From Candidatus Kapaibacterium sp. (GTDB lineage Bacteria > Bacteroidota > Ignavibacteria > Palsa-1295): a stretch of 64,000 bases of DNA. Position numbers and translations under genes: made by a program. The first letter of the stretch is position 1; each line of letters starts with the position of its first letter. The notes beneath the pieces are model-generated. The model was not told the origin of the DNA, ran no database searches, and worked only from the letters and a program-made list of their open reading frames with translations. Positions 4,023 through 44,766 of the stretch are shown in pieces. The stretch lies in the NCBI GenBank assembly GCA_039923455.1, contig JBDTCS010000135.1, positions 13,492-77,491 on the forward strand, given 5' to 3'.

Positions 4023-4054
4023 CTCGGAGGATTTATTTCTTCCGAGCTTTTTTT
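4023..4054 (+). terminator. Rho-independent terminator of the M16 pair; hairpin overlaps the stop region of the convergent minus-strand gene
   Basis: 9-bp stem ctcggagga/tcttccgag (one G-U) with a 6-nt loop, followed by a T-run at 4048-4054. Confidence 0.55.
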
Positions 4055-5073
4055 GTTGGAGCCGCAAGGACGATCTCCTTGTGCTTGGCTGCCGATTGAT
4101 AAATTGCCTCCACTACCTGCATCCGACGTGCAGACTCCTCGCCCGAAGAGATCAGAGGCACGAGATCCTTCACCGCATTTATGAAGTGGCGTAATTCATT
4201 CTCGTATGACTTCTTGTAGAGGCTAAGCGGTGTTTGCGTTTTGACCGGTGTGAGATTCACCAGACTTCCGTGCACGCGTTTGAACACGCGCAACGGATTG
4301 ATGAACGCGCTGCCATCGGCACCAAAAACATTGCAATAGAAAAAGTCTCCTTCGCGATGGAACGTCCAACTCACTTCGATCGTAAGTGTCACGTCGTTTT
4401 CAAGACGAGCGAAAACCGCGGCTGAATCTTCTACGGTCTTCGTCTGCTGATTGTAGGCAGAAGCACTGACCGATAACACAGCCGGATAGTTCAGCAACCA
4501 GAGCGCCATATCGAGCATTACGATACCCATGTCCAAGAATACGCCGCCGCCCGACTTTTCTTTTTGTTGATGCCATGCCGCAAGGCTCGATTGTTGTTTG
4601 AGCCAGCCGGACTTGATGTAAAAAATCTTACCGAGTTCTTCTTTCTCGATAAAGGTCTTTAGGATCATCGTGTCAGGTCGGAATCGATTGTTCATTCCGA
4701 CCATCAGCTTGCGGCCATATTTCGCTGCCGCATCGACCATCTCCTTGGCTTCTTTGTACGTACGGGCGATCGGCTTTTCTACCAAGACGTCTTTGCCCGC
4801 TGCGAGCGCTGCGAGCGCGATCGGCTTATGCGCGTCAGTCGAAGAACAAATATCGATTGCTTGAATATCCGAGGCGATACTCGAAGCGAGCAGTTGTTCG
4901 ATGTCGGTAAAGTAATTCGGAATTCCGGCACGAGCCGCAACTGCTTGCACTTTACGTTTATCCGGATCGACTACTGCGACGATCTCGACATCGGGCATCC
5001 GCTGCAAAATGGGTAGATGCACTACTTGTCCGACGTTTCCGCAACCAACTAAGGCGACTTTGATTTTATCCAT
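4033..5073 (-). CDS. Gfo/Idh/MocA family NAD(P)-dependent oxidoreductase
   Basis: N-terminal Rossmann motif MDKIKVALVGCGNVGQ; 346 aa; overall resemblance to Gfo/Idh/MocA dehydrogenases. Confidence 0.75.
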   Translation of the reverse strand: MDKIKVALVGCGNVGQVVHLPILQRMPDVEIVAVVDPDKRKVQAVAARAGIPNYFTDIEQLLASSIASDIQAIDICSSTDAHKPIALAALAAGKDVLVEKPIARTYKEAKEMVDAAAKYGRKLMVGMNNRFRPDTMILKTFIEKEELGKIFYIKSGWLKQQSSLAAWHQQKEKSGGGVFLDMGIVMLDMALWLLNYPAVLSVSASAYNQQTKTVEDSAAVFARLENDVTLTIEVSWTFHREGDFFYCNVFGADGSAFINPLRVFKRVHGSLVNLTPVKTQTPLSLYKKSYENELRHFINAVKDLVPLISSGEESARRMQVVEAIYQSAAKHKEIVLAAPTKKARKK

Positions 5074-10064: not shown

Positions 10065-11948
10065 ATGGCAAATATTTTTATTTCGTATAGTACGCAGGAT
10101 CGGACCAAGGCAACCAAGCTTTGTGATAATTTTCGTGCGCGCGGATATTCCGTCTGGATGGATGAGACGAATATCAGCGCAGCAACACAGTGGTCCAGCG
10201 AGATCGTCCGGGCGATCGAGGCAAGCAGTGTGTTTATCATTTTGCTTTCGCACTCATCGGTTGGGTCGCATAATGTCATAAAGGAGCTCTCGCTCGCATC
10301 GGAGAAGAAGAAGCACATCATTCCGGTGGAACTGGAGCCCACTGAAATTCCGCACGACTTGCAATATCAACTCGCAGGCATTCAGCGGGTGCCATACAGC
10401 GAGACAGCACGTATCGAAGCTGCGGTCGCACGGTTTGTTGGGGGAACGCCCACGATGCCGGAGCAGATCGCAAAAGCGAGTACACGCACCAAAGCAAATG
10501 TGGGATTTGGAAAATTATGGCTTCGCGCTGGCGTTCCGATAGCTTTGATCTTGATAGCAGCCGGTGTTTACTTTTTTGCAATAAAGAAAGGATCCATATC
10601 CGTTGAGCCTGTTAGTGCCTCTTCAGCTGCTTCGGCGAGGACGTGGCGAGTTGCGGTGCTGCCATTCGAAAGTCTCAGTTCTAATAAAGACGACGAATAT
10701 TTTGCCGAGGGCGTCACGGCATCGCTCATCAGTACGTTATCCCCACTTGCCGGAATTCGGGTAACCAATCGCAAGACTGCGATGGAATACAAGGGCAAAA
10801 AACTTGATCCAAAAACCATCGCCACCGAACTCGGCGTACGGTTCCTTGTCGATGGAACCGTACAGAAGGATGCGCAGCATGTAAAGATCAATGTGCAATT
10901 GATCGATACGAAGAATGGTAAAACGATCTTCGCGGATGACTTCGACGGTCCGCTCACGGATGCGCTGCGGACGCAGGATCAACTCGCACGAGCGATCGCA
11001 TTCGAATTGCAGAGCAAGTTGCTCGTAACGTTCGACTCCAGTTGGTATCTCGGTACTGCAAATCAAGAGTGCTACACCGCGTTTATGCAGGGAGCCCAGT
11101 ACATTGAAAATGCCGATAGTCTGCAACACATGGCCGCAGGGCTTGCGTTATTGGAGAAGGCCTCCAAGCTCGATCCAAAGTTTGCATGGCCCTATGTCAT
11201 GCGTGCGAACTACTATTTCCAGCGTTTTGCAACGCTCTCCCACGATCCGCACGATATCGAAATTATCGACTCACTTGCGAAATACATCGAGCGGACCGAC
11301 CCAAATTTTGCGTACGCAAATCTCTTGCTCGCTCAGGTCGCGAGCGTCCGAGTTGATCTCGAGGGTGCATTGCAACAATCGATGCTATTTATCCGAAAGC
11401 AACCGGACGATGCATTGGGCTATGCGCTCGCAGCGAAGTGTTATTACGCGAAGCGTGACTTCAATAAAACAGTAACGTTTGAGCAGGAAGTCATAAAGCA
11501 AGATATTACACGGCTTTGGGATTGGAATATCTTGATTGGGTGCCTGCAATCCCTCGGCGCCACCAAAGAGAGAGATCACTACATAGATCTCGCACTTCCC
11601 CTATTCGACCGTTATCTCGAAAAGCATCCATCTTCACTTTCCATACGGATTTGGTACGGGCAGCTACTCGCATACACGAACGATAAGCTTGCCACGCACC
11701 GACAAGTTGAGAAGATACTTCAGAGTGACCATCTTGAGACCACCGATTATTACAATCTGGCGTGTATCTATTCCGTGCTAAACGAGCCTGCGCCGGCGAT
11801 CTCGATGCTTAAGACTGCGCTGTCGAATGGCTACCGAAGTGTAGAATCGATTAGCACAGACCCTGACTTTAAAAACATCCGCGAGACCCCCGCATTCAAA
11901 GCGCTTCTCAAAGAAGCCGATACGAAGGCAGCACCCCTCAAACCGTAA
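10065..11948 (+). CDS. TIR-domain transmembrane protein: N-terminal cytoplasmic TIR, one TM helix, TolB-N-like domain, C-terminal TPR solenoid
   Basis: Residues 1-130 match TIR (ANIFISYSTQD..GYSVWMDE..SSVFIILLSHSSVGSHNVIKELSLA, with the conserved Glu in ..KEL..). TM helix ~aa 150-172 (GVPIALILIAAGVYFFAI). Then the TolB-N-like/curli-like periplasmic module (RVAVLPFESLS..DEYFAEGVTASLISTLS..IRV..GKKLDPKTIATELGVRFLVDGTVQ..VKINVQLIDTKNGKTIFADDFDG..DALRTQDQLARAIAFEL). Then TPR-like helices ending ..DPDFKNIRETPAFKALLKEA. Confidence 0.75.
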   Translation: MANIFISYSTQDRTKATKLCDNFRARGYSVWMDETNISAATQWSSEIVRAIEASSVFIILLSHSSVGSHNVIKELSLASEKKKHIIPVELEPTEIPHDLQYQLAGIQRVPYSETARIEAAVARFVGGTPTMPEQIAKASTRTKANVGFGKLWLRAGVPIALILIAAGVYFFAIKKGSISVEPVSASSAASARTWRVAVLPFESLSSNKDDEYFAEGVTASLISTLSPLAGIRVTNRKTAMEYKGKKLDPKTIATELGVRFLVDGTVQKDAQHVKINVQLIDTKNGKTIFADDFDGPLTDALRTQDQLARAIAFELQSKLLVTFDSSWYLGTANQECYTAFMQGAQYIENADSLQHMAAGLALLEKASKLDPKFAWPYVMRANYYFQRFATLSHDPHDIEIIDSLAKYIERTDPNFAYANLLLAQVASVRVDLEGALQQSMLFIRKQPDDALGYALAAKCYYAKRDFNKTVTFEQEVIKQDITRLWDWNILIGCLQSLGATKERDHYIDLALPLFDRYLEKHPSSLSIRIWYGQLLAYTNDKLATHRQVEKILQSDHLETTDYYNLACIYSVLNEPAPAISMLKTALSNGYRSVESISTDPDFKNIRETPAFKALLKEADTKAAPLKP

Positions 11949-11979: not shown

Positions 11980-13989
11980 GTGGTTGTATTCACCGGAGTT
12001 TTGTGTATTCTTCGTCATGGTTATTTTTCCTGTTTTGATTTCTCATTTCTGCTAAAGTGTATGCTCTTCAACTTTCGTCCTATAGCTAAGGTCGCAGCCA
12101 TGATTGGTTGCACGATGGGTATGCTCTCCTCGACTGGAGGTGCTCAAACCACTATAACTCGTCCTGCAACTCCACCAGCGGTGACAGTTATGAGGAGTTC
12201 GCGCCCAGTGCCTGGTGCCGCGCTGATTATTCGTCATGCACCGAACACAGAGCAAGAGCAGGTACAACAACCCGAGCAGCAATTGACGGTCTATAGTCAC
12301 GGTGATCCGACGAACGAAGAGCAATTCGTTCTCGAAATGATCAATCGTGCTCGTGCAAATCCAACAGCCGAGGGTCTATTGCTTAGCACAACGAACGACC
12401 CAGATATCACCAATTCGTACACGCAATTCGGTACCCCAAGCCGAGCAAAAGTAAAGGCCGATTTTGCAACTTATCCAGCGCAACCACCGCTTGCGTTCAA
12501 TGCAAAGTTGATCTCTGCTGCACGAGGACATAGTCAGGATATGCTCGATCATAATTTTCAGGGACATAACGGCAGCAACGGATCAGCGTTCACGGATCGA
12601 CTGAATTCCGCAGGGTATACGGGTTGGACGGGTGCAGGAGAGAATGTCTTTTGCTATGGCAACAGCATGTTTGATATTCATGCGAGCTTCAATATTGATT
12701 TCGGTAACGATGCAACGCTCGGTCATCGGCAGAATATCATGAATTTCACAGGCTCGGTATTCACAGAAGTAGGGCTCGGAATAATTCACGGTGGTAGCGG
12801 CTTGCCGGATGTGGGGCCGATCCTAACAACAGAAGATTTTGCCGATGCCGGCAAGACGTTCATTCTTGGCGTTGTGTACGATGACAAAAATCACAATGGC
12901 TTTTATGATCCCGGCGAAGGGCTCGCAGGTGTGACGATCAAAGCATCTTCCGGTACTTACACCGCCGTTACTTCTACCTCGGGCGGCTATGCAATTCCGT
13001 TCTCGGGTTCCGGTAATGTAAGCGTAACGGCGTCCGGTGGGCCGCTGACCACAACCGTCACGCATATCATTGACTTCAATGCTGCCAACGTCAAGGTTGA
13101 TTTTACACCAGACAAAACCGGCCTGCCTTCGATTGTAACGCTGGTTGTTCCGCTTGCCGACACGACGATCAATCTTGATAGTGTTCGCTTCACGTGGAAT
13201 AAGGTATCGGGTGCGACTGTCTATCGTTTGCAAGTCGCGACAGATTCACTCTTCAAAAAGCTACTCGTTAGTGACTCGACACTCACGGATACATCGAAGG
13301 CATATCGCGGATTGAAAGATAGTGGCAGCTATTGGTGGCGCGCGCAAGCGAAGAATGCAAAAGGATGGGGTGACTATTCTCTGATCCAATCGTTCGGTGT
13401 GTCGCTTCCTCCGAACTCTGTTTTGTATGTTTCGCCATTGAACGCAGCTACGGTTGACACAGGGTACATCACATTCAGATGGCGGCCGTCCGCGAATCGT
13501 GTGACGGGATATTGGTTCATGCTTTCGAAAACTGCCGCGATGACGAACCCGATCGTTAACGATTCCGCTGTCTTCGATACGGAGACGTACGTCTTCTCAC
13601 ATGATCTCATGCAAGGCCAAACATACTATTGGCTAGTGCGAGCACAGAATGATATCGGTTGGAGCACCGCAGGTACTCCGAGAAGTTTTGTACTAAGCAC
13701 GGCGTCGGTTACGCTCAGCGCAGCAAGCGGTGCTCACTCGCTGATGGCGTCACCGAATCCAACTTCCGGCGAAACGCATATTCGCTTCACACTTGAAGCC
13801 TCACAAAGTGTATCACTCAAAATATTTAATACGCTCGGAGAAGAGATCGAGACGCTCGTTGCAGGGAAACTCACGCCGAACAATTATGATCTGACCTGGA
13901 ATGCAAAAGCGCTACCGGCAGGTGTGTACGTGTATCAATTACGCTCGGGTGATCGCGTCGAGAGCGGACAAATTATTCTGACGCGTTAA
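11980..13989 (+). CDS. Secreted CAP/SCP/PR-1-like domain protein with Fn3/Ig-like repeats and T9SS C-terminal sorting domain
   Basis: CAP-superfamily-like segment (..ARGHSQDMLDHNFQGHNG....LGHRQNIMNF..). Repeated ~90-aa beta modules. C-terminal T9SS CTD (ASPNPTSGETHIRF..KIFNTLGEEIETLV..LPAGVYVYQLRSG). The true start may be an internal Met. Confidence 0.55.
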   Translation: MVVFTGVLCILRHGYFSCFDFSFLLKCMLFNFRPIAKVAAMIGCTMGMLSSTGGAQTTITRPATPPAVTVMRSSRPVPGAALIIRHAPNTEQEQVQQPEQQLTVYSHGDPTNEEQFVLEMINRARANPTAEGLLLSTTNDPDITNSYTQFGTPSRAKVKADFATYPAQPPLAFNAKLISAARGHSQDMLDHNFQGHNGSNGSAFTDRLNSAGYTGWTGAGENVFCYGNSMFDIHASFNIDFGNDATLGHRQNIMNFTGSVFTEVGLGIIHGGSGLPDVGPILTTEDFADAGKTFILGVVYDDKNHNGFYDPGEGLAGVTIKASSGTYTAVTSTSGGYAIPFSGSGNVSVTASGGPLTTTVTHIIDFNAANVKVDFTPDKTGLPSIVTLVVPLADTTINLDSVRFTWNKVSGATVYRLQVATDSLFKKLLVSDSTLTDTSKAYRGLKDSGSYWWRAQAKNAKGWGDYSLIQSFGVSLPPNSVLYVSPLNAATVDTGYITFRWRPSANRVTGYWFMLSKTAAMTNPIVNDSAVFDTETYVFSHDLMQGQTYYWLVRAQNDIGWSTAGTPRSFVLSTASVTLSAASGAHSLMASPNPTSGETHIRFTLEASQSVSLKIFNTLGEEIETLVAGKLTPNNYDLTWNAKALPAGVYVYQLRSGDRVESGQIILTR

Positions 13990-14007: not shown

Positions 14008-15486
14008 TTAAGAAAGGATAGGGAACATAGCGGCCGGTTGTGCAATGCCGATATGTTCCTTCGGCTCGATGTTCGAGATCACAAGCGGTGTGAGATCATA
14101 GAGCACATCACCGCGATCAAGCCCATGTTCCGGAGTCGTATGTTCTGCGCGGTGAACGTCGGTTAATCGACCAATGAGTGTCGCCGCGTTTGCACTAATA
14201 ATCTCCACCAAACGATATTCACCGACTTCCGCATCCATGCGCGGAAAAACAACCGTCCAATTCGTATCGGTGCGGCCTTTCCACTGATCAGCATCTTTTT
14301 TTGAACGACCTTCGACAAGCACGGTTTGTCTGGTGCCGAGCTGCACCTGATTCTTGATGCCGGCAATTTCTCGTTGTATGACGATCAACTCCTGTAATCG
14401 TCGAGTCTTTTCGGCGAGTGGAACATCGTCTTCAAGTGTATCATAAGCTCGCGTGTTCGGACGAGGCGAGTAGTTAAACATGTAGGCGCCCTCATAACCT
14501 ACTTCCTCCATCACACGCTTCGTCATCTCGTGATCTTCGAGCGTCTCGGTACAAAAACCTACGATGACATCGGTCGATAGCGCGACTTCCGGCATCGCTC
14601 GTTTGACCATCTCGATGATCGACATATAGTGCGCACGCGTGTAGGTGCGATTCATCAACTTCAGAATCCTATCGGAGCCGGATTGAAACGGAAGGTGAAT
14701 ATACTTGCAAATATTGTCGTGCGAAGCCATCGTATCGACAAGCTTCTGATCAAAATCTTGCGGGTGACTTGTCGTGTAGCGAATGCGAAGATGAGGCACA
14801 GCTTTCGCACATGCCGCGAGCAGATCGGAAAAATCAAACCCGAGATCTTCGTAGGAATTTACATTTTGTCCGAGCAGCGTGATCTCTCGAAAGCCTTGCT
14901 GTTCCAGTGTTTTGCACTCATCGACGATCGAAGCTAACTCGCGTGAGCGTTCACGTCCGCGTGTGAAGGGTACGACGCAAAACGTACAAAACTTATCACA
15001 GCCGCGCATGACAGAAATATATGCACTGATGCCGTCAGCACGAAAGGGAAGAATATCGGAATAGGTCTCGGTGCGTGATAGCTGGACAGAGATACCCTTT
15101 TCGCCGGAACCGAGCGTCGATTCGATCAACTGTGGAAGCTTGCGATACTCGTCCGGTCCAATCACCAGATCAACCACATTCTCGGAGTTCTGCAACAGAT
15201 CTTTACGCAGATGTTCGGCCATACATCCCAGCACACCAACCACCATCTCCGGACGCTTTTTCTTTAAGCTCTTCCAGTGGTTCAGCCTATTCCAAACTTT
15301 TTCTTCTGCGTTCTCACGAATCGCGCAGGTGTTCATGAACGCGATCGTAGCTTCGGCGATATTTGCGGTCGGAGTATAACCTGCGTTGTGCAGAACAGAA
15401 AGTACGACCTCTGTGTCAGCCACGTTCATTTGGCATCCGTAGGTCTCGATGTATACTTTCTTTTGAGTTGTAAGGTCGTCCTGCAT
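14008..15486 (-). CDS. miaB: tRNA-i6A37 methylthiotransferase MiaB (radical SAM)
   Basis: N-terminus KVYIETYGCQMNVADTEV.., radical-SAM CxxxCxxC (CDKFCTFC), TRAM-like C-terminus; 492 aa. Confidence 0.85.
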   Translation of the reverse strand: MQDDLTTQKKVYIETYGCQMNVADTEVVLSVLHNAGYTPTANIAEATIAFMNTCAIRENAEEKVWNRLNHWKSLKKKRPEMVVGVLGCMAEHLRKDLLQNSENVVDLVIGPDEYRKLPQLIESTLGSGEKGISVQLSRTETYSDILPFRADGISAYISVMRGCDKFCTFCVVPFTRGRERSRELASIVDECKTLEQQGFREITLLGQNVNSYEDLGFDFSDLLAACAKAVPHLRIRYTTSHPQDFDQKLVDTMASHDNICKYIHLPFQSGSDRILKLMNRTYTRAHYMSIIEMVKRAMPEVALSTDVIVGFCTETLEDHEMTKRVMEEVGYEGAYMFNYSPRPNTRAYDTLEDDVPLAEKTRRLQELIVIQREIAGIKNQVQLGTRQTVLVEGRSKKDADQWKGRTDTNWTVVFPRMDAEVGEYRLVEIISANAATLIGRLTDVHRAEHTTPEHGLDRGDVLYDLTPLVISNIEPKEHIGIAQPAAMFPILS

Positions 15487-16764: not shown

Positions 16765-18087
16765 TTGATGGACGCATTCAGAGTTAAAGGAGGGAAGCCT
16801 CTTCACGGAACCGTGCGCGTGAGCGGTACAAAGAATCTGATCTCGAAACTGATGGTCGCGTCGATGCTCGCCGACACTCCGAGCACATTCACAAATGTGC
16901 CTGTGCATCTGGGCGAGGTGGATATAACCGGTGATATCGCTCGGTCTCTCGGCTCCAAGATCGACTTCTCAAGCGATCATCACGGTACCATGTGTATCAA
17001 CACTCCGAAGTTCGAGACTACCATCGTACCCAAGCGGTTCGCCGGTATGAATCGTATTCCGATCTTGATGCTCGGACCAATGCTACATCGTATGGGGACA
17101 GCCTCTGTGCCAATGCCGGGTGGAGATAACATCGGTAAACGTCCCGTTAATTTTCACATTGCGGCATTGCAAGAGATGGGCGCGATCGTGGAATACTCCG
17201 ACGGATACTTCACGTGCACTGCCGAGAAACTTGTTGGCACTTCGCTTGTGCTACCGTTTCCATCGGTCGGTGCGACCGAGAATATCATGATGGCCGCTAC
17301 ACTCGCCGAGGGTACAACGATCATCGATAACGCAGCCGTTGAGCCTGAGATCGTCGAACTCATGAAATTCCTGCAAAAGATGGGGGCGATTATTTCGCTT
17401 GAAACAAATCGACGCATTATCATCGAAGGTGTGAAGCGTTTAGCCGGAGCGGAGCAATTCGTGATGCCGGATCGGATCGAAGCAGCGAGCTTTGCATGTG
17501 CTGCGATCGCAACACGCGGAGATATCTTTGTCGAAGGTGCTCAGCAATCGACGATGATCACTTTTCTAAATGCGCTTCGTAAGGCCGGTGCAGATTTTGA
17601 AGTGAGCGAATTCGGAATTCGTTTTTTCTATACCGGAAGATTAAAGCCACTCGCGATCGAAACCGATGTGCATCCCGGTTTCATGACCGATTGGCAGCAG
17701 CCGTGGGTGCTGATGATGACGCAGGCCGACGGAATGTCGGTGATCCATGAAACGGTGTATGAAGATCGTTTTGGGTATGTGAAGGAATTGCAAAAGATGG
17801 GTGCAAAGATCGAGCTCTATAAATCTTGCCTCGGTGGAAATCCGTGCCGATTTAAAACACTTGTGCATCCTCACTCGGCCGTTATACTTGGACCAACCAA
17901 ACTAAAGGGTGGCACCATTCATATTCCTGATCTTCGTGCAGGCTTTGTTTATCTTATTGCAGCTTCACTTGCTGAAGGCGAGAGCACCGTCCTCGGAATT
18001 CATCATGTCGAGCGCGGCTACGAGAAAATTCAAGATAAGCTTTTAGGACTCGGTGTTGATATCGAGAGAATACAAGTCGCGGATTAA
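16765..18087 (+). CDS. murA: UDP-N-acetylglucosamine 1-carboxyvinyltransferase
   Basis: FRVKGGKPLHGTVRVSGTKN.., active-site region ..MPGGDNIGKRPVNFHI..; 440 aa; full-length resemblance to MurA. Confidence 0.9.
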   Translation: MMDAFRVKGGKPLHGTVRVSGTKNLISKLMVASMLADTPSTFTNVPVHLGEVDITGDIARSLGSKIDFSSDHHGTMCINTPKFETTIVPKRFAGMNRIPILMLGPMLHRMGTASVPMPGGDNIGKRPVNFHIAALQEMGAIVEYSDGYFTCTAEKLVGTSLVLPFPSVGATENIMMAATLAEGTTIIDNAAVEPEIVELMKFLQKMGAIISLETNRRIIIEGVKRLAGAEQFVMPDRIEAASFACAAIATRGDIFVEGAQQSTMITFLNALRKAGADFEVSEFGIRFFYTGRLKPLAIETDVHPGFMTDWQQPWVLMMTQADGMSVIHETVYEDRFGYVKELQKMGAKIELYKSCLGGNPCRFKTLVHPHSAVILGPTKLKGGTIHIPDLRAGFVYLIAASLAEGESTVLGIHHVERGYEKIQDKLLGLGVDIERIQVAD

Positions 18088-18113: not shown

Positions 18114-19496
18114 TTACAATCGAATAAACCTTCCAATGGCGATTGATCCATTCGAACCCGTCGTCCGAACCGTGTACCAGCCGCTCGGGAGCGCATGCGT
18201 ATCGAGTGCGAAGTTGGTTTTCCCTATCAACGTGTAGCGAAGCAGAACTCGCCCAAGTACATCCTGTACTTCCATTGTGCAGTTCGCTCCCAAACCTTGC
18301 CATGAAATATTCGTTGTGTTTTCTGCCGGATTGTCTGATAGGTGCAGCACGAGATTGGGTTCCGAACGCAGCGTGTGAACACCACTCGGGACCTTTCCGA
18401 TAAAGAGACCTGCATCGGTTCCGACAGCAAGGGTGCCACTAGAAGTATCATGTTTGATCATCCAAATTTTTCCAACAAGCGGCTTGCGCGGAAAACCGGT
18501 TGAATCCCAAGTATGCCCTCCATCGAACGACTCCTCCACGAGTCCGCCTTTGCTGGAATCCGGCCCACCTTGCAAAAATATTCCCGTCCAGAGATGTTGT
18601 GGTAATCCATTTTTTAACATGGCAGCATGTTGATCGATCTCGATCGCCCATGCATGTGGGTCAGGTGAGGGAAGCGTTGTCCAGTGTAAGCCATGATCTG
18701 TCGTCTCGACGATAGAAGCTTCGTTCGATTTCCAGCGTGTTGCGATCGCGACTTGCGGCGAATATTTTGAATAGACTATCTTCGGAATTTCCGGCATAGT
18801 CGCAAGATCGGCAGGATAGACGGGAGCCCAATGGGCGCCTTCGTCGGACGATCGAGCGATCACACCATCGAGCGAACCGGCAAGCAGTACCTTCGAATTG
18901 TCCGGCGAAACCGAGAGTGCGCAAAGTCCGACGCTGGTATCTGCGGGGCCAGTTTCTTGCCACGTTGCGCCATGATCGAGTGATCGATAGACGGGTCCCT
19001 GAAAATTCTGACCGTAATAGAGCGCGTCGGTTTTTTTGTGGTAAGTAAGATCCTCACCATCGATGCCCCCCGGATCGAGGACAACGCTCCAGTTTTTCCC
19101 ACCATTCGTCGAACGAAACGCCTTTCGAGTCGAGACTGCGAGGACGACATTTGTGTCGGATTCGAGGCAGAGGATCTGGCCAATATTTGTGGAGACAAAC
19201 TCTTCAAGGCCAGCACGGTAGTTTTGCCAGTAGAAGCCACCGTCGTCAGATCGCGAAATTCCTATAGAATCGGGGGAAGCCGCAAAGAGTATCCGGCCAT
19301 GCGAAAGGGGATTGAATTCGACACAGGGGATCTCTGCCAAGTAGGTCTTCTGCCAGTGGTACGATTGAGCCTCGACCATCGAACCAGTCACGCTTAGGAA
19401 GCTGAGGAGCAATAGCCAAAGACGGAATATTTCTCCCAGTCGATTCGCACCCGGTAACATTGTCAGAAACGAGGACTTATTCGAGCGTTCAAACAT
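18114..19496 (-). CDS. BNR/Asp-box repeat protein (Ycf48/sialidase-like beta-propeller) with T9SS C-terminal sorting domain
   Basis: Six SxDxGxTW-type BNR motifs (SDDGGFYWQ, STNGGKNWS, SLDHGATWQ, SSDEGAHWA, TTDHGLHWT, SFDGGHTWD). Signal peptide. C-terminal T9SS CTD (..DNPAENTTNISW..VQDVLGRVLL..LPSGWYTVRT..). Confidence 0.7.
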   Translation of the reverse strand: MFERSNKSSFLTMLPGANRLGEIFRLWLLLLSFLSVTGSMVEAQSYHWQKTYLAEIPCVEFNPLSHGRILFAASPDSIGISRSDDGGFYWQNYRAGLEEFVSTNIGQILCLESDTNVVLAVSTRKAFRSTNGGKNWSVVLDPGGIDGEDLTYHKKTDALYYGQNFQGPVYRSLDHGATWQETGPADTSVGLCALSVSPDNSKVLLAGSLDGVIARSSDEGAHWAPVYPADLATMPEIPKIVYSKYSPQVAIATRWKSNEASIVETTDHGLHWTTLPSPDPHAWAIEIDQHAAMLKNGLPQHLWTGIFLQGGPDSSKGGLVEESFDGGHTWDSTGFPRKPLVGKIWMIKHDTSSGTLAVGTDAGLFIGKVPSGVHTLRSEPNLVLHLSDNPAENTTNISWQGLGANCTMEVQDVLGRVLLRYTLIGKTNFALDTHALPSGWYTVRTTGSNGSIAIGRFIRL

Positions 19497-19861: not shown

Positions 19862-22800
19862 TTGCATTCATTGTTTCTTTCTGTCTTCCTGCTTCTCGTG
19901 CTGGTGAGTGGCCGTCCACTCTTCGCGCAAGGCGGTATTCCATCCGATGTCCGATATTTCTTTATCGGATGGATGCCCGGCCTTATTCACGTGCCATATT
20001 TCAGTAATGTTACGGAGTCCTATTGGGTCCTTGTTGGATCCTATGCAGACAACAACGTTGTAACTATTTCCTACTTCGACGACAATGGTGTCGAGACGAG
20101 TGGCCCAACGATGATCCTGAGTAAGGGTCGCGTGTGGCAGCAAGCGCTCGATCGCAATCACATGCGTCCGACGAAGCCCGGCGAAGTGCCGGAATTCAAA
20201 GCTGCACGTATTCGTGCAAAATATCCTGTCAGCGTGCAGTGCTACAGCGAAGGCTCCGCCACCGGTGGAATGTTGCAGGCTATCCCGACTCCCGCACTGG
20301 GAAAAAAATATGTAGCCGCTGCTTGGGTAGACAACCCGATTCAGAGCAACCCGGGATTTATCAATCGTGATTCGGCAAGTTCCGAATTCATGGTTATCGC
20401 GCCGTATGATCACACAACGGTGACATTCACACCTGCATCCACAACATGCGCGGGCATCATCGGTGTTAACTCCGGTCAAGGGGCAACAGGCACACCGCAT
20501 CCGCAGACGGTTGTATTGCGTCGCGGGCAGATCTATTGGGTGCGCTCACACTCGATCGATCCATCGTATGATATGTCGGGTTCGTTGATTGTTTCGGATA
20601 AACCGGTTGCAGTTATCGCTGGCCACGAGCGCGCGCTGCTCGGTGATCCTTCGGGAATCTGGACAACACTCGATAACGACACACGCGATTTGATGATCGA
20701 GCAGATGACACCTGTCGAAGATTGGGAGTCGGAATATCCTTCAGCGCCTTTTGTGTCACCACCAAAAATCACCAGATTGCTCGTCAATGGTACGGGTGAT
20801 ATGTACAGAGTATATAGTGCAGATCCGAGCGGCAGCCAAGTGGATGCATGGATCGGTGGAAATATTTCGCCCTACACACTCGGGCTTTCGATGTACCAAA
20901 ATCCTATTCCTCATTACGACAACGTGATCGCACCTGTCGATCTTGTTGCCCACGATGGGAAAAAGATTTATGTCGTGATGTATGATTATTTCCAAGGACA
21001 GCACGATTTTGATCCGGGTGAAAAGACGAAGGACAAGGGTCATGATTCGACGACTTCTTCCGGCAATGGCGGAGGACAAACGCTCGACGAAACAACCTAC
21101 ACGTGCCCGAACGAAATGAACGTCGTGCCTGCAAATCGCTGGCGCAAAGATGCGGTTTGGAAAGTGCCGAACAATTCGCACTACCGCGGTTATCAGTTCA
21201 TCAACGTTATTACCTATCGTGATTCGATCGCAAAGTTGTTCTTGAGCAAAAATGGAGCACCCGGTACACCACTTTCTTCCTGGCCGTATGTCGGTAGCTT
21301 CTCTATCCCGTTGCATCCGGAATATATCGCTGTTCGTGTCAAACTTCCGGCTGCAGATTATTCTATGACGGCGAACACCCCGTTTGTAGTCTATAGCTAT
21401 GGTCGCACAGAGACGGAGTATAAAGACGGCTGGGGCTATGCTGCTCCGTGCGGACAAGCCTACGGTGCACACGACGAGAATAACAAGCCACGTATGGACG
21501 TCACACCTGATTGTTCTTCGTGGGGTGTAAGAATCTATGACTCGCGTCCGGGTGATGATGGAATCGCGGACATTGTATTGCTCGATGATGCGCAAGGTAT
21601 CTACGCGCGTCCGGGTCGCGTGAGCTATAACACTCGCTTGAACCCGACGGACCCGAACTTCGTCGCTGGCGATACTTCCGTATTGTTCCGTGTCGAGGTT
21701 ATCAACCCATTGTTAGATGCCTACGCTGCGATCTATACCGTGGATAAGGCCGGAAACGATACCGTGTTTGAGTTGCGCTACATCGCACCAAAGGTAACGT
21801 TTACTCCGACAAGCACGAGCGCACTTATGACGACTGTTGGTGCAGATTCGGTTACTCGATTTGTATTCCACAACAATTCGATTAAGGGGGGAGCACCGAT
21901 CGTAATCACCGATGCCAACTTCAAGTTAACGGATCCGTCATTCAAGATCACCTCAACGGTGCCGAGTATCCCGGCAACTCTAAAAGGTGGCGATTCGATC
22001 GTTATAAATGTAACATATACAGCGAGCGATACAGGAGTTGTGCATCTCGATAGTCTCTATCTGGTAACTGCGAATTGCTTCAATGATACTGTCGCAGTCA
22101 TCGGCTCCGGCGCTACGCCGATCATCGAGGCAACCGATATTGATTTCGGTGCTGTGCTCGTTGATAGCACGAAGTGCAAAGTGCTTACGGTAAAGAATGT
22201 TGGAAATGCAAACCTGATCATCGACAAGAATTGGGTGCTGCACAATGTTACGGAGTTCACCTTCGGGGATTACGCAGTGCTTCCGATCACATTGCGTCCG
22301 GGCGCATCGACAAAGCTTTCCTTCTGCTATACACCGCATAAGGTTGGCAATGACTCTACGAATCAGGATTGGGGTACCAATCTGCATGAACCATTCATGC
22401 ACAAGAATAAAGATTTCTCTGTGCTGATCGGTCGTGCAGTCAAGCCTGGCGTGCTTTGGGATCGTCTCAAGCAACCGTACGCCGTCGTCTGCCAACGCTC
22501 CGACACTGTTCGTATCTGGCTCTATAATAACACCTCTTCACAAAACGGTGCAACCGAGCACGTGAAGACAGTGCTTATCGAAGGCGCAGATGCTGCACAG
22601 TTCACCATGTGGAGAAATCAGCTCAACCTGACTCCGCTCGGTAACTTTGATATGGCTGTCGGCGATAGCATTTGGGTAGATCTGATCTTCACTCCGGATC
22701 TTGCAAAGGGTTTTGCACAACGTCACGCAACGCTTACGGCATATAACGCGACGCAGTCGAGTCCGTATGTAGATATCAGCGCAAACGTTACGCATGCAAA

Positions 22801-24217
22801 TCTGACAGGAAGTGTCACATCAATCAACTTCGGCGTAGTACAACCGGGTGTTGCTGTACCAATGCCATTGAAGATAACGAATTCGGGTGACGCTGATTTT
22901 ACCGTCGTAACAATGACGATGAGCGACCCAGTCACATTCGTAGCTACTGGGCTCAAAGTTGGCGATGTTATTCCGGCTGGTGCAAGTGTGAACGTGACCA
23001 TCACAGGTACGCTCGCTTCGAGTGGATCTGTTTCGGGAACACTTAGCATCACTGGTTCGGATAACTGCGCTTCGCTCAGTTTACCACTGACGATGGCGGC
23101 TGATTATGTTTCTGTACTCGGAACGGGCAATACCTTCCCCGAGACATTCATCAACTGCCGACACAGTGATGGAAGCGCCTACGCAACGAATAAGGGCACG
23201 CGAAATGTGAAGTTAGTGCAAGCGATTATCACTGGCGATGCCACGCATCCGAATGCGGATCAATTCGTCTTCGCAGACGGCTCGACAACCATGGTCGTCA
23301 ATCGCATATTGAAGCCAGGCGACACCGCAGTCTTCAATCTGAAGTTCTTGCCAACGAAGACCAAGAATCTTAGCGCAGTCATCGAGTACACGTGGGATAC
23401 AGCATCTGTTCCTGGATTCACATGGACATCGGATGACTATCTATCGGGGCCTGGTGCAGCGCTCGCCGATACAATTAGCGCGTTGTCGGGCGATACCAAG
23501 CCATACAGCGTGAAGACCGGCGAAGTGTTTGATGTGCCGATACACTTGACGCATCGCATGCCGACAAACTCGGAAGCCGTTGGATACACGTTCGATGTGA
23601 CATACAGACAGGATCTCTTCCATCTCGTGAGTGTCAACGTACCTGCCGGTTATCATCTGATTGGCGGATCGGGGAATGCCACCGATGATGGAAATGGCAA
23701 CGAGACTGTCTATATCAAGGCGCTCGGTGCGAATACGATCGACAATCTGGATGAAGTTGCAGTATTGCGTTTCCAACTTATGGTTGCGAAAGATTTGCAT
23801 AGCGACTTCACGGTTGCTCACGGCGCGTTCTTCGACAAGGATACCGTTGATTTGTGCTATGTTGCGACAGAGCAGATCCCGGGTAACTTCGTGCCGCAGG
23901 ATCTTTGCGGGGATAGCACGATCCGTCATAAACTCCGTACCGGAGTCATTGATGGACAGATTACGCAAGTGAAGCCGAATCCGGCGACGACTGTTGCATC
24001 TATTGAGTACGAGATCCGTCAACAGAACACACCTGTGACGATCGAACTCTATAACGTGCTTGGTGTAAAGATCCAAACCGTGCTCTCAAACGAGATGCAT
24101 GAGATCGGAGCTTATCGGGCAAACATCGATGCAAGTGAGTTGCAGAACGGTACCTACACGGTGAAGTTTTCCACCCCGGGCGGTTCGATGAATCGGATGA
24201 TCGTTGTCAGAAAGTGA
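19862..24217 (+). CDS. Giant (1451 aa) secreted adhesin-like protein with T9SS C-terminal sorting domain
   Basis: Signal peptide MHSLFLSVFLLLVLVSGRPLFAQG. Long beta-rich multidomain body. C-terminal CTD (VKPNPATTVASIEYEI..IELYNVLGVKIQTVL..LQNGTYTVKFSTPGG). Confidence 0.7.
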   Translation: MHSLFLSVFLLLVLVSGRPLFAQGGIPSDVRYFFIGWMPGLIHVPYFSNVTESYWVLVGSYADNNVVTISYFDDNGVETSGPTMILSKGRVWQQALDRNHMRPTKPGEVPEFKAARIRAKYPVSVQCYSEGSATGGMLQAIPTPALGKKYVAAAWVDNPIQSNPGFINRDSASSEFMVIAPYDHTTVTFTPASTTCAGIIGVNSGQGATGTPHPQTVVLRRGQIYWVRSHSIDPSYDMSGSLIVSDKPVAVIAGHERALLGDPSGIWTTLDNDTRDLMIEQMTPVEDWESEYPSAPFVSPPKITRLLVNGTGDMYRVYSADPSGSQVDAWIGGNISPYTLGLSMYQNPIPHYDNVIAPVDLVAHDGKKIYVVMYDYFQGQHDFDPGEKTKDKGHDSTTSSGNGGGQTLDETTYTCPNEMNVVPANRWRKDAVWKVPNNSHYRGYQFINVITYRDSIAKLFLSKNGAPGTPLSSWPYVGSFSIPLHPEYIAVRVKLPAADYSMTANTPFVVYSYGRTETEYKDGWGYAAPCGQAYGAHDENNKPRMDVTPDCSSWGVRIYDSRPGDDGIADIVLLDDAQGIYARPGRVSYNTRLNPTDPNFVAGDTSVLFRVEVINPLLDAYAAIYTVDKAGNDTVFELRYIAPKVTFTPTSTSALMTTVGADSVTRFVFHNNSIKGGAPIVITDANFKLTDPSFKITSTVPSIPATLKGGDSIVINVTYTASDTGVVHLDSLYLVTANCFNDTVAVIGSGATPIIEATDIDFGAVLVDSTKCKVLTVKNVGNANLIIDKNWVLHNVTEFTFGDYAVLPITLRPGASTKLSFCYTPHKVGNDSTNQDWGTNLHEPFMHKNKDFSVLIGRAVKPGVLWDRLKQPYAVVCQRSDTVRIWLYNNTSSQNGATEHVKTVLIEGADAAQFTMWRNQLNLTPLGNFDMAVGDSIWVDLIFTPDLAKGFAQRHATLTAYNATQSSPYVDISANVTHANLTGSVTSINFGVVQPGVAVPMPLKITNSGDADFTVVTMTMSDPVTFVATGLKVGDVIPAGASVNVTITGTLASSGSVSGTLSITGSDNCASLSLPLTMAADYVSVLGTGNTFPETFINCRHSDGSAYATNKGTRNVKLVQAIITGDATHPNADQFVFADGSTTMVVNRILKPGDTAVFNLKFLPTKTKNLSAVIEYTWDTASVPGFTWTSDDYLSGPGAALADTISALSGDTKPYSVKTGEVFDVPIHLTHRMPTNSEAVGYTFDVTYRQDLFHLVSVNVPAGYHLIGGSGNATDDGNGNETVYIKALGANTIDNLDEVAVLRFQLMVAKDLHSDFTVAHGAFFDKDTVDLCYVATEQIPGNFVPQDLCGDSTIRHKLRTGVIDGQITQVKPNPATTVASIEYEIRQQNTPVTIELYNVLGVKIQTVLSNEMHEIGAYRANIDASELQNGTYTVKFSTPGGSMNRMIVVRK

Positions 24218-30734: not shown

Positions 30735-33700
30735 GTGTGTGAGAAACGAAAGGAAGTGAATCTGATTTTCGTACCCACTATCCCAATCTCTCAACGAACG
30801 CGCGGAGTAAGAAGAAGCTTCTCACAGAGAGGTCACTCACTCCGAAGTTTCGCGTTTTGTCTAATCACAGTACTTTCGTGTTTCGCTTCGAGCGCGAACG
30901 CGCAATTCCCTGCGCCCTGCGATAAGGATAAATCGTGCATCGGAAATGCGCTTACAATCAGAGCGACTTCGGGCAAAGCTGCGCAATACGTTGATATAGA
31001 TACTTCAGCAGTGCTTCGATCGCTCGATACCGCAATGACGTTTGAGTGCTGGGTGCGCCCTGAGTTGCAGCCCGGCAAGCGGCAGTTCATTGGAGGTCTT
31101 TGGGGTCCGAACAAAGACAACAATGATCAATGGGTGTTGTACATTCAGGATAACCAGATCGTCTTCGCACTAAGCGCCGATGCTTCGTTCAAAGGTGATG
31201 TCGATAATACCATCGCTACGGCGAATGTCGCAGATCTTTATACGCGAGGTTGGGTGCATATTGCTGCGGTGTGGGATGGTGTGACAACGGTCGCTCGCAT
31301 TTATGTCGATGGTGTGCTCTTGATAAATGCGACGAACTCGCTTTTTCCGATCACGCATTTGCATCCGATCGAAAGCAAGACGCTCTCGATGCAGCTCGCA
31401 AGCTGTAATGCACTTTATGATGACACGGTTCGCTTTCGCACCTTCAAAGGCAAGCTTGATGAGATCCGCCTTTGGCGTAGAGCCCTCTCACAACCGGAGG
31501 TGCTTTGCCAAAGATACTTATCGCTCAATGGCAACGAGCCCGGGCTTATCATGTATTTTCGATGCAACGAACCAGGCAACACGCAATTCATGTGTGATGC
31601 TGCCGGAAATTTCATTGGACGTATGCGAAGCGGGGCGTTCTGTGATACGAGCAATCGAGTGCTCCCCGTAACCTTCGCTGCAGTTCCTGCTTCGGTTACG
31701 GGCAATCTTGCTTGCACGGTTGATACCACATTAAGCTTTACCGTCATTGACACCGCGTTCTGCGGGGACCGTGTGAACATTGGAGTTTTTGGCGGCAACT
31801 CGGCGCTCTTTACCGTCAGCCCAACGACGGCAGTGTTACAGCAAAATGTGCCGTTCACTTTTACGGTTCAATTACATGCGACGCTCATCGGACCGATCTC
31901 AACCGACTTGTACGTCTATAATCAAAATCGCTGCAATGCGCAGATCCGCATTCCGATACGCTACAATCGATCGACGGAGCTATCGTATTCGAAGGGTTCG
32001 CTCAATCTTGATACGCTCTACGTTGGATGTATTCAAGAAACATCGCGTGAGGATACGGTGACGATCTGCAACGTGTCGAATCGGGCAGTGACAATCTCGA
32101 AAGCAATTTTTGATAGCCTCAGATATTCCTATCACCCTGCGGCACCATCCGGGCCATTGCCGCAAGTCTTGCCACCGGGTGCTTGCTGGAAGATCGTCGT
32201 GCACATGGATGTGCTCGATTCTTCGAAGACACTCTATGACACGCTTCGCATAGTGAGCGATGACCGCTGCCCGGGAAGCGGTGCAATTCCAATCTTTGGC
32301 AGATCGCAGGAAGTAATCGCCTTGCTCGCACCGAATGGTAAGACACACGTGGACTCAATGAACTTCGGCCGCGTCTGTCCCGGATTCATTAGCAACGTAC
32401 AACTCTATCAGTATCGAGGTTTAGTGCCGGATACCGTACACATTGACTCGATAACGTATTCGACGTTCCAATTTTTTGGTGCAGGCTTTCAATTTCCGCT
32501 GAAGCTCGCACCGAAAAATGCGTACACGCCGACCTACATTCGGTTCAAACCCGACAAACCGGGTCCGTTCACGGGCGAGATGACGCTCTACTCAAGCTAT
32601 CGTGGCTGCTCGATTGTAAAGCATATTCAACTCGCAGGAGTTGGCATATCGGTCGATGTCGGATTTGATCAGCCGAATATTCTTTTCGGTAATGTTACGA
32701 TAGGTAAGTTCAAACAAATTACCGTGACGGTCACCAATCACGGCAAAGATTCGCGCCCGATGTCAACCTACCTGAAGGTGGGCGATGTCTTCGCAATCGT
32801 CGCGGGAAAGAGCTTTACGATCAATCCTGGTGAGACGAAGTCGATCACCGTCGAATTCCGTCCGAGAGAGCTGAAGACGTATCCGGATACACTTTGTCTT
32901 TTTGATCAAGGCTGCTATCAATCCGTATGTATTCCGATCACCGGCACGGGAGTTTTTGATCAGCTTTCGTTCACGCCTCCATTTTTGCGTATGGATAATG
33001 TTATCGGTTGCAAGTGTCAGACCGATACCGTTATCGTAGAAAATATTTCTTCTGGGAGCGTCACGATCACTTCGGACAATCTGAATGATCCGAGTGGTAA
33101 GCTGAAGATGATCAGTGGCTCCTACGCGGGAAGTTTTGCCGCCGGACGAAAGCTGCAATACATCGTGCAGTATTGCCCGAACGATCTCAATCAAGATCGC
33201 GCAGATGATGCCTATATCGATATCAAACTTTCCGATGGGCAGATTTATCAAGTTTTGATTCGCGCAACCTCGGTTGCACCAAAACTATACGTGACGCCGC
33301 TGACAACGTTTAACATCGTTGAGGTTGGTTGGCAAAAGCGAGACAGCATCTTAGTGGAAAATGAGAGTGCCGTTCCATTACATGTGACCTCTGTCAGCGT
33401 GCCTCCGGGATATGTGGTGATTCAAACATTTCCACCACTGCCAACAACCCTCAATCCTCGTGACACGTTGTGGGTCGAGGTCGAATTCAGGCCGCTTGCA
33501 GAGACAAGTTACGATGGGCCGATCACGCTCTCACTCGATGATCCATGCTCGCTTAGTTATTCCGGTGTCATCACTGGTCGTGGACAGATTGTCCGGCTCG
33601 AAGTTGCGATGAGTTTTATCAATTATGGATTGATCAAGCCGTGCGATTGTGTGACGCGTGTGATTCCATTGCCGAATTATAGTAACACGCTCCCAATCTC

Positions 33701-44500: not shown

Positions 44501-44766
44501 CAACGGGAATAGGTTCGGACGTGCAGCGACCGCTTGCAACCGTGATCGTCGGAGGTTTGGCGAGTGCTTTGCTGCTCACACTCATTGTGTTGCCTGCGTT
44601 ATATTATTCCATCGAGAAGCGAGGGAGAGTCAACAAAGCCGCTATCGCAATCGAATTGCAAGAGCTTGACGAGCATGATCACGCCTTGCAACTTCGCGAA
44701 GAGCACGATCGCGAACTTCGGGAGTTGCGTGAGCAACAAAATAATAGTGACACTCACAAACAGTGA
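41530..44766 (+). CDS. czcA: Heavy-metal efflux RND permease, CusA/CzcA family
   Basis: 1078 aa; 12-TM RND topology; HME-RND-type conserved blocks (..GAIDFGIIVDGAVIM.. , ..ISLFGVAVMSGVLL..). Third gene of the operon. Confidence 0.9.
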   Translation: MIRKLVHFAMRQRVLTLLFALLIIVGGIASYLTLKIEAYPDVADTEVDVITKYPGRAAAEVEQQVTIPIERALNSVPRVVNRRSRTIFGLSIVKLTFDEGTDDYFARQQVIEKLRGADIPDGLNPDLAPLSTPVGEIFRYVIEGKPGISAMDLRTLQDWVVVPKLLQAKGVADVANFGGLVKQFSVILDPIKLRKYALTVNAVQTAIQANNSNTGGNIIERGSQGLSIRGIGTIRSADDIASIVLASSNSTGTPIFVKDVGSIEITALPPSGVLGYTDIARHNDVSNGVEGIVLMRRGENPSEVLKSLKEKLEEAKAAMPEGVEIFTIYDRSELVENTLHTVSHTLIEGVTIVVIILLFFLGNIRAALLTAITIPLSLLFAFIVMRFTGIPANLLSLGAIDFGIIVDGAVIMTEAIMRKFSHTPKDVRDRLGTVRLILEATQEVDRQIFFSVVIIIIAYLPLFTLTRVEGKLFSPMAYTLSYAIGGSLLFALTVVPVIATYLFRSGVVKEWENPIVKLLDRSYGRLTATLLKYRKLVLASAVCVVLGALFIGSQLGTEFLPELDEGAVVIRTVLPAGISLTEAAHYPPMIREVVSAFPEARVVITHLGRNDDGTDPYGPNRIETHIELTKYDTWPSGVDKHQLLKEIKAGLENKIPGASFSFSQPILDNVTEAVTGSSADLAVLVNGDDLGKLRAYADTIYHVIKGIRGATESGIEEEGDQAQLRIEVKRQAAARYGINVRDVEDVIELAVAGKPVSTLYEGERKFDIVVRYQANTRSTVEEVSRLEVTSPAGQRIPISELADIRIEDGSTIIAREDGHRQVGVRTNVRERDQGSFVAEAQAKVAQVLHLQKGYSVDWGGQFENLTRAKDHLVVIIPITLFLIFGLLFITFKSVKYALIVLVNVPLALVGGILALWGRGINFSVSSGVGFISLFGVAVMSGVLLIARFNQLRFVHHMPLKEAVEQGARDELRPILMMMLVALLGLIPASLATGIGSDVQRPLATVIVGGLASALLLTLIVLPALYYSIEKRGRVNKAAIAIELQELDEHDHALQLREEHDRELRELREQQNNSDTHKQ

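Follow-up and report, generated by a model that had tools for sequence, protein, structure and literature searches.

Could a bacterium hold a TIR domain at the inner end of a transmembrane (TM) receptor and control it from outside the cytoplasm? The question is raised by one gene in a 64,000-nucleotide stretch of DNA from Candidatus Kapaibacterium sp. (hereafter the window; NCBI GenBank assembly GCA_039923455.1, contig JBDTCS010000135.1, positions 13,492 to 77,491 of the forward strand). The gene is an open reading frame (ORF) of 627 amino acids (aa) running from ATG to TAA, with exactly the coordinates given in a preliminary description made from the sequence alone (Table 1), and its start codon is backed by homologs that open with M-A-D-I-F-I-S-Y-S. 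An identical protein (P0001) is encoded, beside the same neighbours, on two independent Joint Genome Institute (JGI) metagenome contigs, and the GC content of the gene is that of the remaining window. The domain order first proposed for the protein, namely TIR, a single TM helix, a TolB/CadC-like module and a tetratricopeptide repeat (TPR) solenoid, was borne out by Pfam and NCBIfam matches, by hydropathy and by an AlphaFold2 model computed from 27 homologs (mean predicted local distance difference test score, pLDDT, of 86.5); this architecture is real and conserved. We read the protein, with a probability of roughly one half, as an inner-membrane single-pass receptor in which a cytoplasmic SPARTA/SARM1-like TIR domain that cleaves NAD+ (a TIR NADase) would be governed by a periplasmic CadC-type/TPR sensor.

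The assignment of the first ∼130 aa to TIR is secure, as the Pfam model TIR_2 (PF13676) matched residues 4–119 far above its gathering threshold (85.7 bits versus a cut-off of 28; E = 4.7e-24). The Pfam TIR model also matched (E = 7e-8), and the protein has the flavodoxin-like alpha/beta fold of TIR domains. The closest solved TIR domains by sequence are the SPARTA TIR-APAZ chains, and the closest PADLOC models were likewise those of SPARTA TIR-APAZ, with matches that spanned the TIR part only (residues 3–112). E74 (..SHNVIKEL..) falls opposite Glu77 of SPARTA TIR-APAZ (VIKEL versus VLKEL), where an E77A mutation abolishes NADase activity (PMC9097488). This glutamate was invariant in all 27 aligned TM-type homologs and was kept in 255 of the 256 non-identical family members pooled from all searches, the one exception being an X; since the members that keep it have diverged to 25–50% identity, its retention argues for selection on catalysis. 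A conserved glutamate had been announced in the preliminary description and is indeed present as E74, but the glutamate of the VWMDE motif (E34) is not the conserved one, W31 and D33 being the conserved residues of that stretch. Judged from its sequence, the TIR domain is likely to be NAD-cleaving.

Hydropathy analysis placed a lone hydrophobic segment at residues ∼151–175 (Kyte-Doolittle 2.36 over 19 aa, the sole one above 1.6) and showed no signal-peptide-like segment at the N-terminus, in keeping with the earlier picture of an N-terminal TIR domain without signal peptide followed by one TM helix. The AlphaFold2 model has this helix (residues 153–173) isolated between two disordered linkers, and in 27 of 27 aligned homologs the position of the segment, though not its sequence, was kept. 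In a set of 66 TM-type members, Lys and Arg were more frequent in the 15 residues preceding the helix than in the 15 following it (mean K+R 3.9 versus 2.5; net charge +3.6 versus +0.8), with more K+R on the TIR side in 48 members, equal numbers in 9 and fewer in 9 (Wilcoxon p ∼1e-8, for sequences that are related rather than independent). Because the sole TM helix is preceded by a folded 125-aa domain and no signal peptide, NAD+ is a cytoplasmic substrate and the flanking charges show a positive-inside bias, TIR is placed in the cytoplasm; the topology suggested at the outset, with TIR inside and the sensor in the periplasm, is thus favoured. The Cys content and charge of the C-terminal block differed only slightly between TM-type and soluble members and were left unused.

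Behind the helix, the model has an alpha/beta module (residues 194–296) and a helical solenoid (residues 300–621); TPR matches were found across the solenoid, which closes with a strong match to NCBIfam TPR_END_plus (NF047558) at residues 562–616 (E = 1.2e-18; 66.8 bits versus a cut-off of 32); the PDB sequence matches of this cap are to the same cap in a PDZ-domain protein. The NCBIfam CadC equivalog aligned residues 131–419 with residues 148–421 of CadC (E = 5.8e-8; 32 bits versus a cut-off of 400), and Foldseek matched the model to E. coli CadC (3lya/3ly7) at E ∼3e-6 over ∼318 columns, while the matches to TolB_N (E = 0.07) and Pfam FlgO (E = 0.008) were both sub-threshold. The same arrangement, a TM helix and then the TolB-like+TPR block, occurs in Ser/Thr kinases, class III cyclases and one winged-helix protein (P0062), and the block also stands behind a TM helix in a 3-TM family. 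Over residues 196–616 it is ∼28% identical to the kinase and cyclase receptors (E down to 1e-39), for example to the C-terminal part of rhizobial plasmid-borne adenylate cyclases (‘adenylate/guanylate cyclase domain-containing proteins’). Because kinases, cyclases and a winged-helix protein carry the same block, it was right to propose one sensor cassette that different receptors share while their cytoplasmic outputs are exchanged, as it was to suggest that TIR here takes the place of a winged-helix output. The accompanying claim of a CadC/ToxR-type sensor holds in so far as the block is homologous to the periplasmic domain of CadC; that the block is specifically periplasmic does not hold, given that most TIR paralogs (111 of 151; see below) lack a TM helix and that no such helix precedes the block in many TIR and cyclase fusions. 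The TolB-like module is clearly a widely reused building block.

Two kinds of unusual relative were seen during these searches. In proteins P0021 (751 aa) and P0029 (758 aa), one chain carries both TIR and a class III nucleotidyl cyclase ahead of the TolB-like+TPR block, with no TM helix between cyclase and block; these proteins bring two nucleotide-signalling outputs to one sensor. Giant proteins (P0121, 2837 aa; P0122, 2283 aa; P0124; P0128) contain 4–7 copies of the TolB-like module.

The gene is no isolated invention, a point that the preliminary description missed: it is one of a large, expanded family whose members are mostly soluble and often stand in tandem arrays. A word-indexed search returned full-length homologs at 31–47% identity in metagenome-assembled genomes (MAGs) of Kapabacteria and Bacteroidota, named in their sources as ‘FlgO family outer membrane protein’, ‘TolB-like protein’, ‘adenylate cyclase’ or ‘TIR domain-containing protein’. 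A HMMER search with residues 1–331 yielded 540 representatives of 50%-identity clusters at E ≤ 1e-30, a set that takes in TM-type, soluble and non-TIR proteins with several TolB-like modules. Relatives were found at 77 loci in a scan of GTDB species representatives, and family genes were called in 33 genomes, mostly Kapaibacterium, Ignavibacteriota and Bacteroidota MAGs, together with Verrucomicrobiota and one Flavobacteriales MAG. When the ORFs of 82 fetched loci were classified with purpose-built hidden Markov models, the 151 TIR-bearing paralogs comprised 111 of TIR-TolB-like-TPR architecture with no TM helix, 33 of TIR-TM-TolB-like-TPR architecture, 3 with TIR, TM helix and TolB-like module but no TPR, and 4 with TIR and TolB-like module and neither TM helix nor TPR. 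Many of these genes lie in tandem arrays of up to 9 consecutive, mostly soluble members, often with overlapping stop and start codons (L004, L011, L016 and L044; Table 1), and none, one or two of the genes in an array are TM-type. In the genome CAVTNP, at least 17 family copies are present.

In a neighbour-joining tree of 227 full-length members, 158 soluble proteins formed one clade and the TM-type members two, one of 41 that includes the window protein and one of 23 that is mainly from Verrucomicrobiota. Presence or absence of the helix required only 2 parsimony changes on this tree, and the TM helix is therefore best regarded as a stable inherited feature of subfamilies rather than noise. 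TIR is the most conserved region (mean pairwise identity 0.51–0.55 family-wide and 0.59–0.82 within arrays) and TPR the most divergent (0.25–0.33 family-wide), which is the pattern expected of a conserved effector with a variable sensor. The family is large, unstudied and mostly soluble, and its expansion in tandem arrays is an additional, unreported finding; its proteins can already be found in public databases, where the names they bear are generic or misleading.

Two variants within the family deserve mention. Proteins of ∼356 aa (P0028–P0033; L021, 10001–10945; L067, 9959–11074) consist of TIR, the TM helix and the TolB-like module, without a TPR solenoid; these are ∼47% identical to residues 1–316 of the window protein, and their genomes also hold full-length members. 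A second clade, from marine Verrucomicrobiota (L065–L082; e.g. L066, 1673–11986, and L068, 9995–14304), consists of TIR-TM-TolB-like-TPR proteins of 665–730 aa, some of them paired with a 750–770-aa TIR protein of different architecture.

How might such a receptor work? Kinase, cyclase and winged-helix outputs are all activated by dimerisation or oligomerisation, as are TIR NADases. For the latter, a requirement for oligomerisation is stated in a preprint (bioRxiv 10.1101/2023.09.23.559129). The variable TPR surface of the periplasmic module could bind some ligand or partner, the likeliest candidates being peptides, proteins and envelope components, and binding would alter the self-association of the receptor. 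The TIR domains would then be brought together into a composite active site and NAD+ would be cleaved, with either NAD+ depletion and growth arrest or an ADP-ribose-derived signal as the outcome. A role in conflict or immunity is suggested by the expansion of the family, the variable TPR region and the SPARTA/ThsB-like TIR domains. Ordinary signalling through an NAD-derived messenger is suggested by the interchange of outputs with kinases, cyclases and winged-helix domains, by the housekeeping neighbours, by the presence of relatives at 44–47% identity in other genomes and by the lack of a mobile-element link (zero matches in 50,697 phage records, and plasmid matches to the C-terminal block only, in rhizobial cyclases).

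Several points weigh against a sensor-governed TIR NADase. Its function is inferred throughout, from NAD+ cleavage and its activation by oligomerisation to the ligand and the biological role. The topology is predicted from hydropathy, charge bias and the AlphaFold2 model. Housekeeping and outer-membrane genes surround the gene, which is not part of a defence island. Since proteins without a TM helix also make use of the TolB-like+TPR block, it may serve more generally as a scaffold for oligomerisation instead of sensing a ligand outside the cytoplasm. Lastly, the position four residues before the catalytic glutamate is often Trp in TIR NADases, whereas the window protein has Asn there (Asn70); SPARTA, however, has Gly at this position, so that Trp is not required and Asn70 is not disqualifying.

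Other explanations were weighed against the same observations. The TIR domain might be a non-catalytic assembly scaffold, as in animal TLR/MyD88, that nucleates mixed assemblies with soluble TIR-TolB-like-TPR paralogs from other sites in the genome, the output then coming from these assemblies. TM-type and soluble paralogs do occur in the same genomes (1 TM-type and at least 5 soluble in DASTAO; 4 and at least 5 in JAUZOQ), and arrays L004, L009, L010, L011 and L013 hold 1–2 TM members among many soluble ones. However, a pure scaffold would need no catalytic glutamate, and this residue is kept in both TM-type and soluble members, as noted above; furthermore, tblastn found no paralog elsewhere in the window, and arrays L016, L044 and L058 have no TM member. 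We consider the scaffold explanation unlikely, if worth keeping in mind.

A second explanation reverses the role of the membrane, with the helix serving as a tether that holds a self-activating TIR NADase dispersed and inactive until regulated proteolysis, triggered from the periplasm, releases TIR. There is precedent in the amoeba protein TirC, which needs its N-terminal TM helix for a highly active TIR NADase to be tolerated, removal of that helix leading to filaments and cell death (PMC13142454), and the long disordered linkers on either side of the helix in the window protein (residues 128–152 and 174–191) are plausible protease sites. Yet no protease gene is conserved beside family members, and soluble paralogs with the same TIR are evidently tolerated at up to at least 17 copies per genome, so that free TIR of this family is not intrinsically lethal. 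Release from a tether therefore seems quite improbable.

The hydrophobic segment might also be no true span, or a peripheral anchor, leaving the whole protein in the cytoplasm like the soluble paralogs and E. coli TIR-II. Most family members have no hydrophobic segment, and in those the block clearly functions in the cytoplasm; in addition, single proteins with TIR and TPR are validated cytoplasmic anti-phage systems (PMC11350192). The segment itself argues otherwise, with ∼21 residues, the hydropathy given above and an isolated helix between disordered linkers in the model, as do its restriction to two coherent clades, the agreement of its flanking charges with the positive-inside rule, and the presence of a helix at the same place in the homologous kinase, cyclase and winged-helix receptors. 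We hold a wholly cytoplasmic protein to be very unlikely. The readings implied by the names of homologs in their sources (a FlgO-family outer-membrane protein, an adenylate cyclase or an ordinary CadC-like DNA-binding regulator) can hardly be right, because Pfam FlgO reached 16.4 bits versus a cut-off of 22.6 in a protein that has no signal peptide or lipobox and begins with TIR, PF00211 had no match in the protein, and Trans_reg_C had none while the CadC model, at 32 versus 400 bits, covered the sensor part only.

Read as a membrane receptor with a TIR NADase output, the protein would work much as transmembrane sensors of the CadC/ToxR or receptor-cyclase type do, with TIR in the output position. 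Like CadC/ToxR regulators it has a single membrane pass, an N-terminal cytoplasmic output, and homologous periplasmic alpha/beta and helical subdomains (PDB 3LY7/3LYA); unlike them its output is TIR instead of an OmpR-type winged helix, and its helical subdomain is extended into a TPR solenoid that a TPR_END cap closes. Receptor Ser/Thr kinases and class III cyclases share the TM-TolB-like-TPR block and likewise exist in versions with and without the TM helix, but phosphorylate or synthesise cyclic AMP where the window protein would presumably cleave NAD+. SPARTA TIR-APAZ shares the aligned catalytic glutamate, and its NADase is switched on by oligomerisation (bioRxiv 10.1101/2023.09.23.559129); the window protein differs in having no APAZ, adjacent Argonaute or nucleic-acid sensing and in being membrane-anchored with a periplasmic sensor. 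Thoeris ThsB has neither a TM helix nor such a sensor block. As a candidate identity for the gene, ThsB was rejected, there being no ThsA (SIR2 or Macro, with SLOG) within ∼8 kb and none recurring at the 82 loci.

E. coli TIR-II also joins an N-terminal TIR to a C-terminal TPR region in one stand-alone protein, a likeness known at the domain level only. Its defence needs conserved active-site residues of the TIR NADase, and it is described with a TPR domain, joined by an ATPase domain in ∼30% of cases, while no TolB- or CadC-like module and no TM domain are attributed to it (PMC11350192). According to the same E. coli TIR survey, TLR-like TM and repeat features seem to be absent from bacterial TIR systems, and one E. 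coli system is listed with a TM domain (PMC11350192); the earlier statement that bacterial TIR systems are soluble was for that reason too strong. Animal Toll-like receptors (TLRs) share with the window protein an extracytoplasmic repeat solenoid, one TM helix, a cytoplasmic TIR and multigene expansion. In contrast to them, it has TPR rather than leucine-rich repeats, an N-terminal TIR, type II rather than type I orientation and a TIR that keeps the catalytic glutamate, and it is not known to have a set of MyD88-like adaptors; the likeness is convergent and not homologous.

No description of the TIR-TM-CadC-like/TPR architecture was found in the literature (searched for TIR in Kapabacteria, TolB-like domains with cyclase, COG5616 and membrane-anchored prokaryotic TIR). 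Every bacterial TIR system compared here senses its trigger inside the cell. The window gene and at least 60 relatives, in two clades and at least two phyla, unite hallmarks of TLRs with a TIR that keeps the catalytic residue, and if that TIR is active and under periplasmic control, a trigger beyond the cytoplasm could set off signalling or suicide based on NAD+. TIR chemistry would then have a new route of input, in clear convergence with animal TLRs. That kinases, cyclases, DNA-binding domains and TIR are all served by one sensor cassette makes TIR one of the exchangeable outputs of bacterial transmembrane signalling, a point relevant to whether the TIR domains of bacteria act only as immune effectors. 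In style, the tandem paralog arrays resemble the repertoires of NLRs and TLRs. A more ambitious proposal, in which we place little belief, is a TLR-like innate sensing network made from this one gene family in Kapabacteria and their relatives: TM receptors such as the window protein, with hypervariable periplasmic TPR sensors, would detect extracytoplasmic cues (phage adsorption or injection, competitor effectors or envelope damage might be envisaged) and seed hetero-oligomeric TIR assemblies with the dozens of soluble paralogs of the tandem arrays, and these assemblies would amplify the signal as NAD+-derived messengers or NAD+ collapse. If true, bacteria would have evolved a receptor/adaptor TIR cascade of their own, independently of animals.

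Table 1. Features of the TIR gene in the window (positions counted from the first letter of the window) and tandem arrays of related genes (positions within each fetched locus).
Feature	Positions	Strand	Basis or remark
Whole gene, TIR-TM-TolB/CadC-like-TPR protein	10065..11948	+	ORF list; TAA stop at 11946-11948
TIR domain, predicted cytoplasmic, aa 1-125	10065..10439	+	
Glu74 codon, putative catalytic glutamate	10284..10286	+	aligns with TIR-APAZ Glu77
Lys/Arg-rich disordered linker, predicted cytoplasmic, aa 126-152	10440..10520	+	pLDDT <50 at 128-152
Single transmembrane helix, aa 153-173	10521..10583	+	hydropathy and AlphaFold2 isolated helix
Linker, predicted periplasmic, aa 174-191	10584..10637	+	pLDDT <50 at 174-191
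TolB-N/CadC-N-like alpha/beta module, aa 192-298, motif LPFESLS..DEYFAEG	10638..10958	+	
TPR-like helical solenoid, aa 299-621, the family's most divergent region	10959..11927	+	
C-terminal TPR end-cap, aa 562-616, ..DPDFKNIRETPAFKALL..	11748..11912	+	NCBIfam NF047558 TPR_END_plus
Tandem arrays in Kapaibacterium/Ignavibacteriota MAGs	L004 1-21878; L011 4471-20190; L016 1041-11514; L044 4745-18773; L058 5055-13933		

Within ∼8 kb of the gene lie, among others, a TonB-dependent receptor with DUF4249 (both divergently transcribed), a CAP/fn3 protein that bears a type IX secretion system (T9SS) sorting tail, and genes for MiaB, an EPSP synthase family protein, a GFO/IDH/MocA oxidoreductase and an M16 peptidase. 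The absence of a canonical defence partner was correctly noted at the start, as ThsA, SIR2 and Macro are absent from the neighbours within the window. Clustering of the neighbours at the 82 loci likewise gave no conserved effector-like partner gene. Those that recurred (MnmG, MnmE, a SIS-domain protein, T9SS-tailed proteins and TonB-dependent receptors) reflect shared synteny among related genomes. The gene is thus autonomous, with no conserved non-family neighbour at the 82 loci or in the window, and a single-gene system is for this reason plausible. Synteny with the window was not conserved for the closest homologs (44–47% identity; L003, L006, L007 and the contig of P0012), which lie in unrelated neighbourhoods, adjoining for example ClpX or Dus. 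At one of these loci a SIR2_2-domain gene (L003, 14313–15254) lies 2.4 kb downstream of the close homolog P0005, past ClpX and a methyltransferase; its position is probably coincidental, as it was seen at this locus only and none recurred across the fetched loci.

A gathering-threshold Rfam scan of the whole window returned no elements, sigma-70-type promoter matches around the gene were no commoner than in shuffled sequence, and terminator-like matches there were uninformative. The CAP+fn3 gene (11980–13989) begins 31 bp past the stop codon of the TIR gene, and co-transcription is possible, although the pairing of the two genes is not conserved among the closest homologs. Its product and a BNR/sortilin-like protein (18114–19496) both have T9SS C-terminal sorting domains. 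The window also contains very large ORFs at 19862–24217 (1451 aa), 30735–35756 (1673 aa) and 41530–44766 (1078 aa). Housekeeping genes of the window (4033–5073, 14008–15486 and 16765–18087) show 66–77% protein identity to genes of L046, L051 and L052, contigs that come from two MAGs, one of an ‘uncultured Ignavibacteriae’ (CAIUMP) and one of Kapaibacterium (JADGPZ). The source organism is thereby assigned to that lineage. In L051 and L052 soluble members of the family adjoin MiaB.

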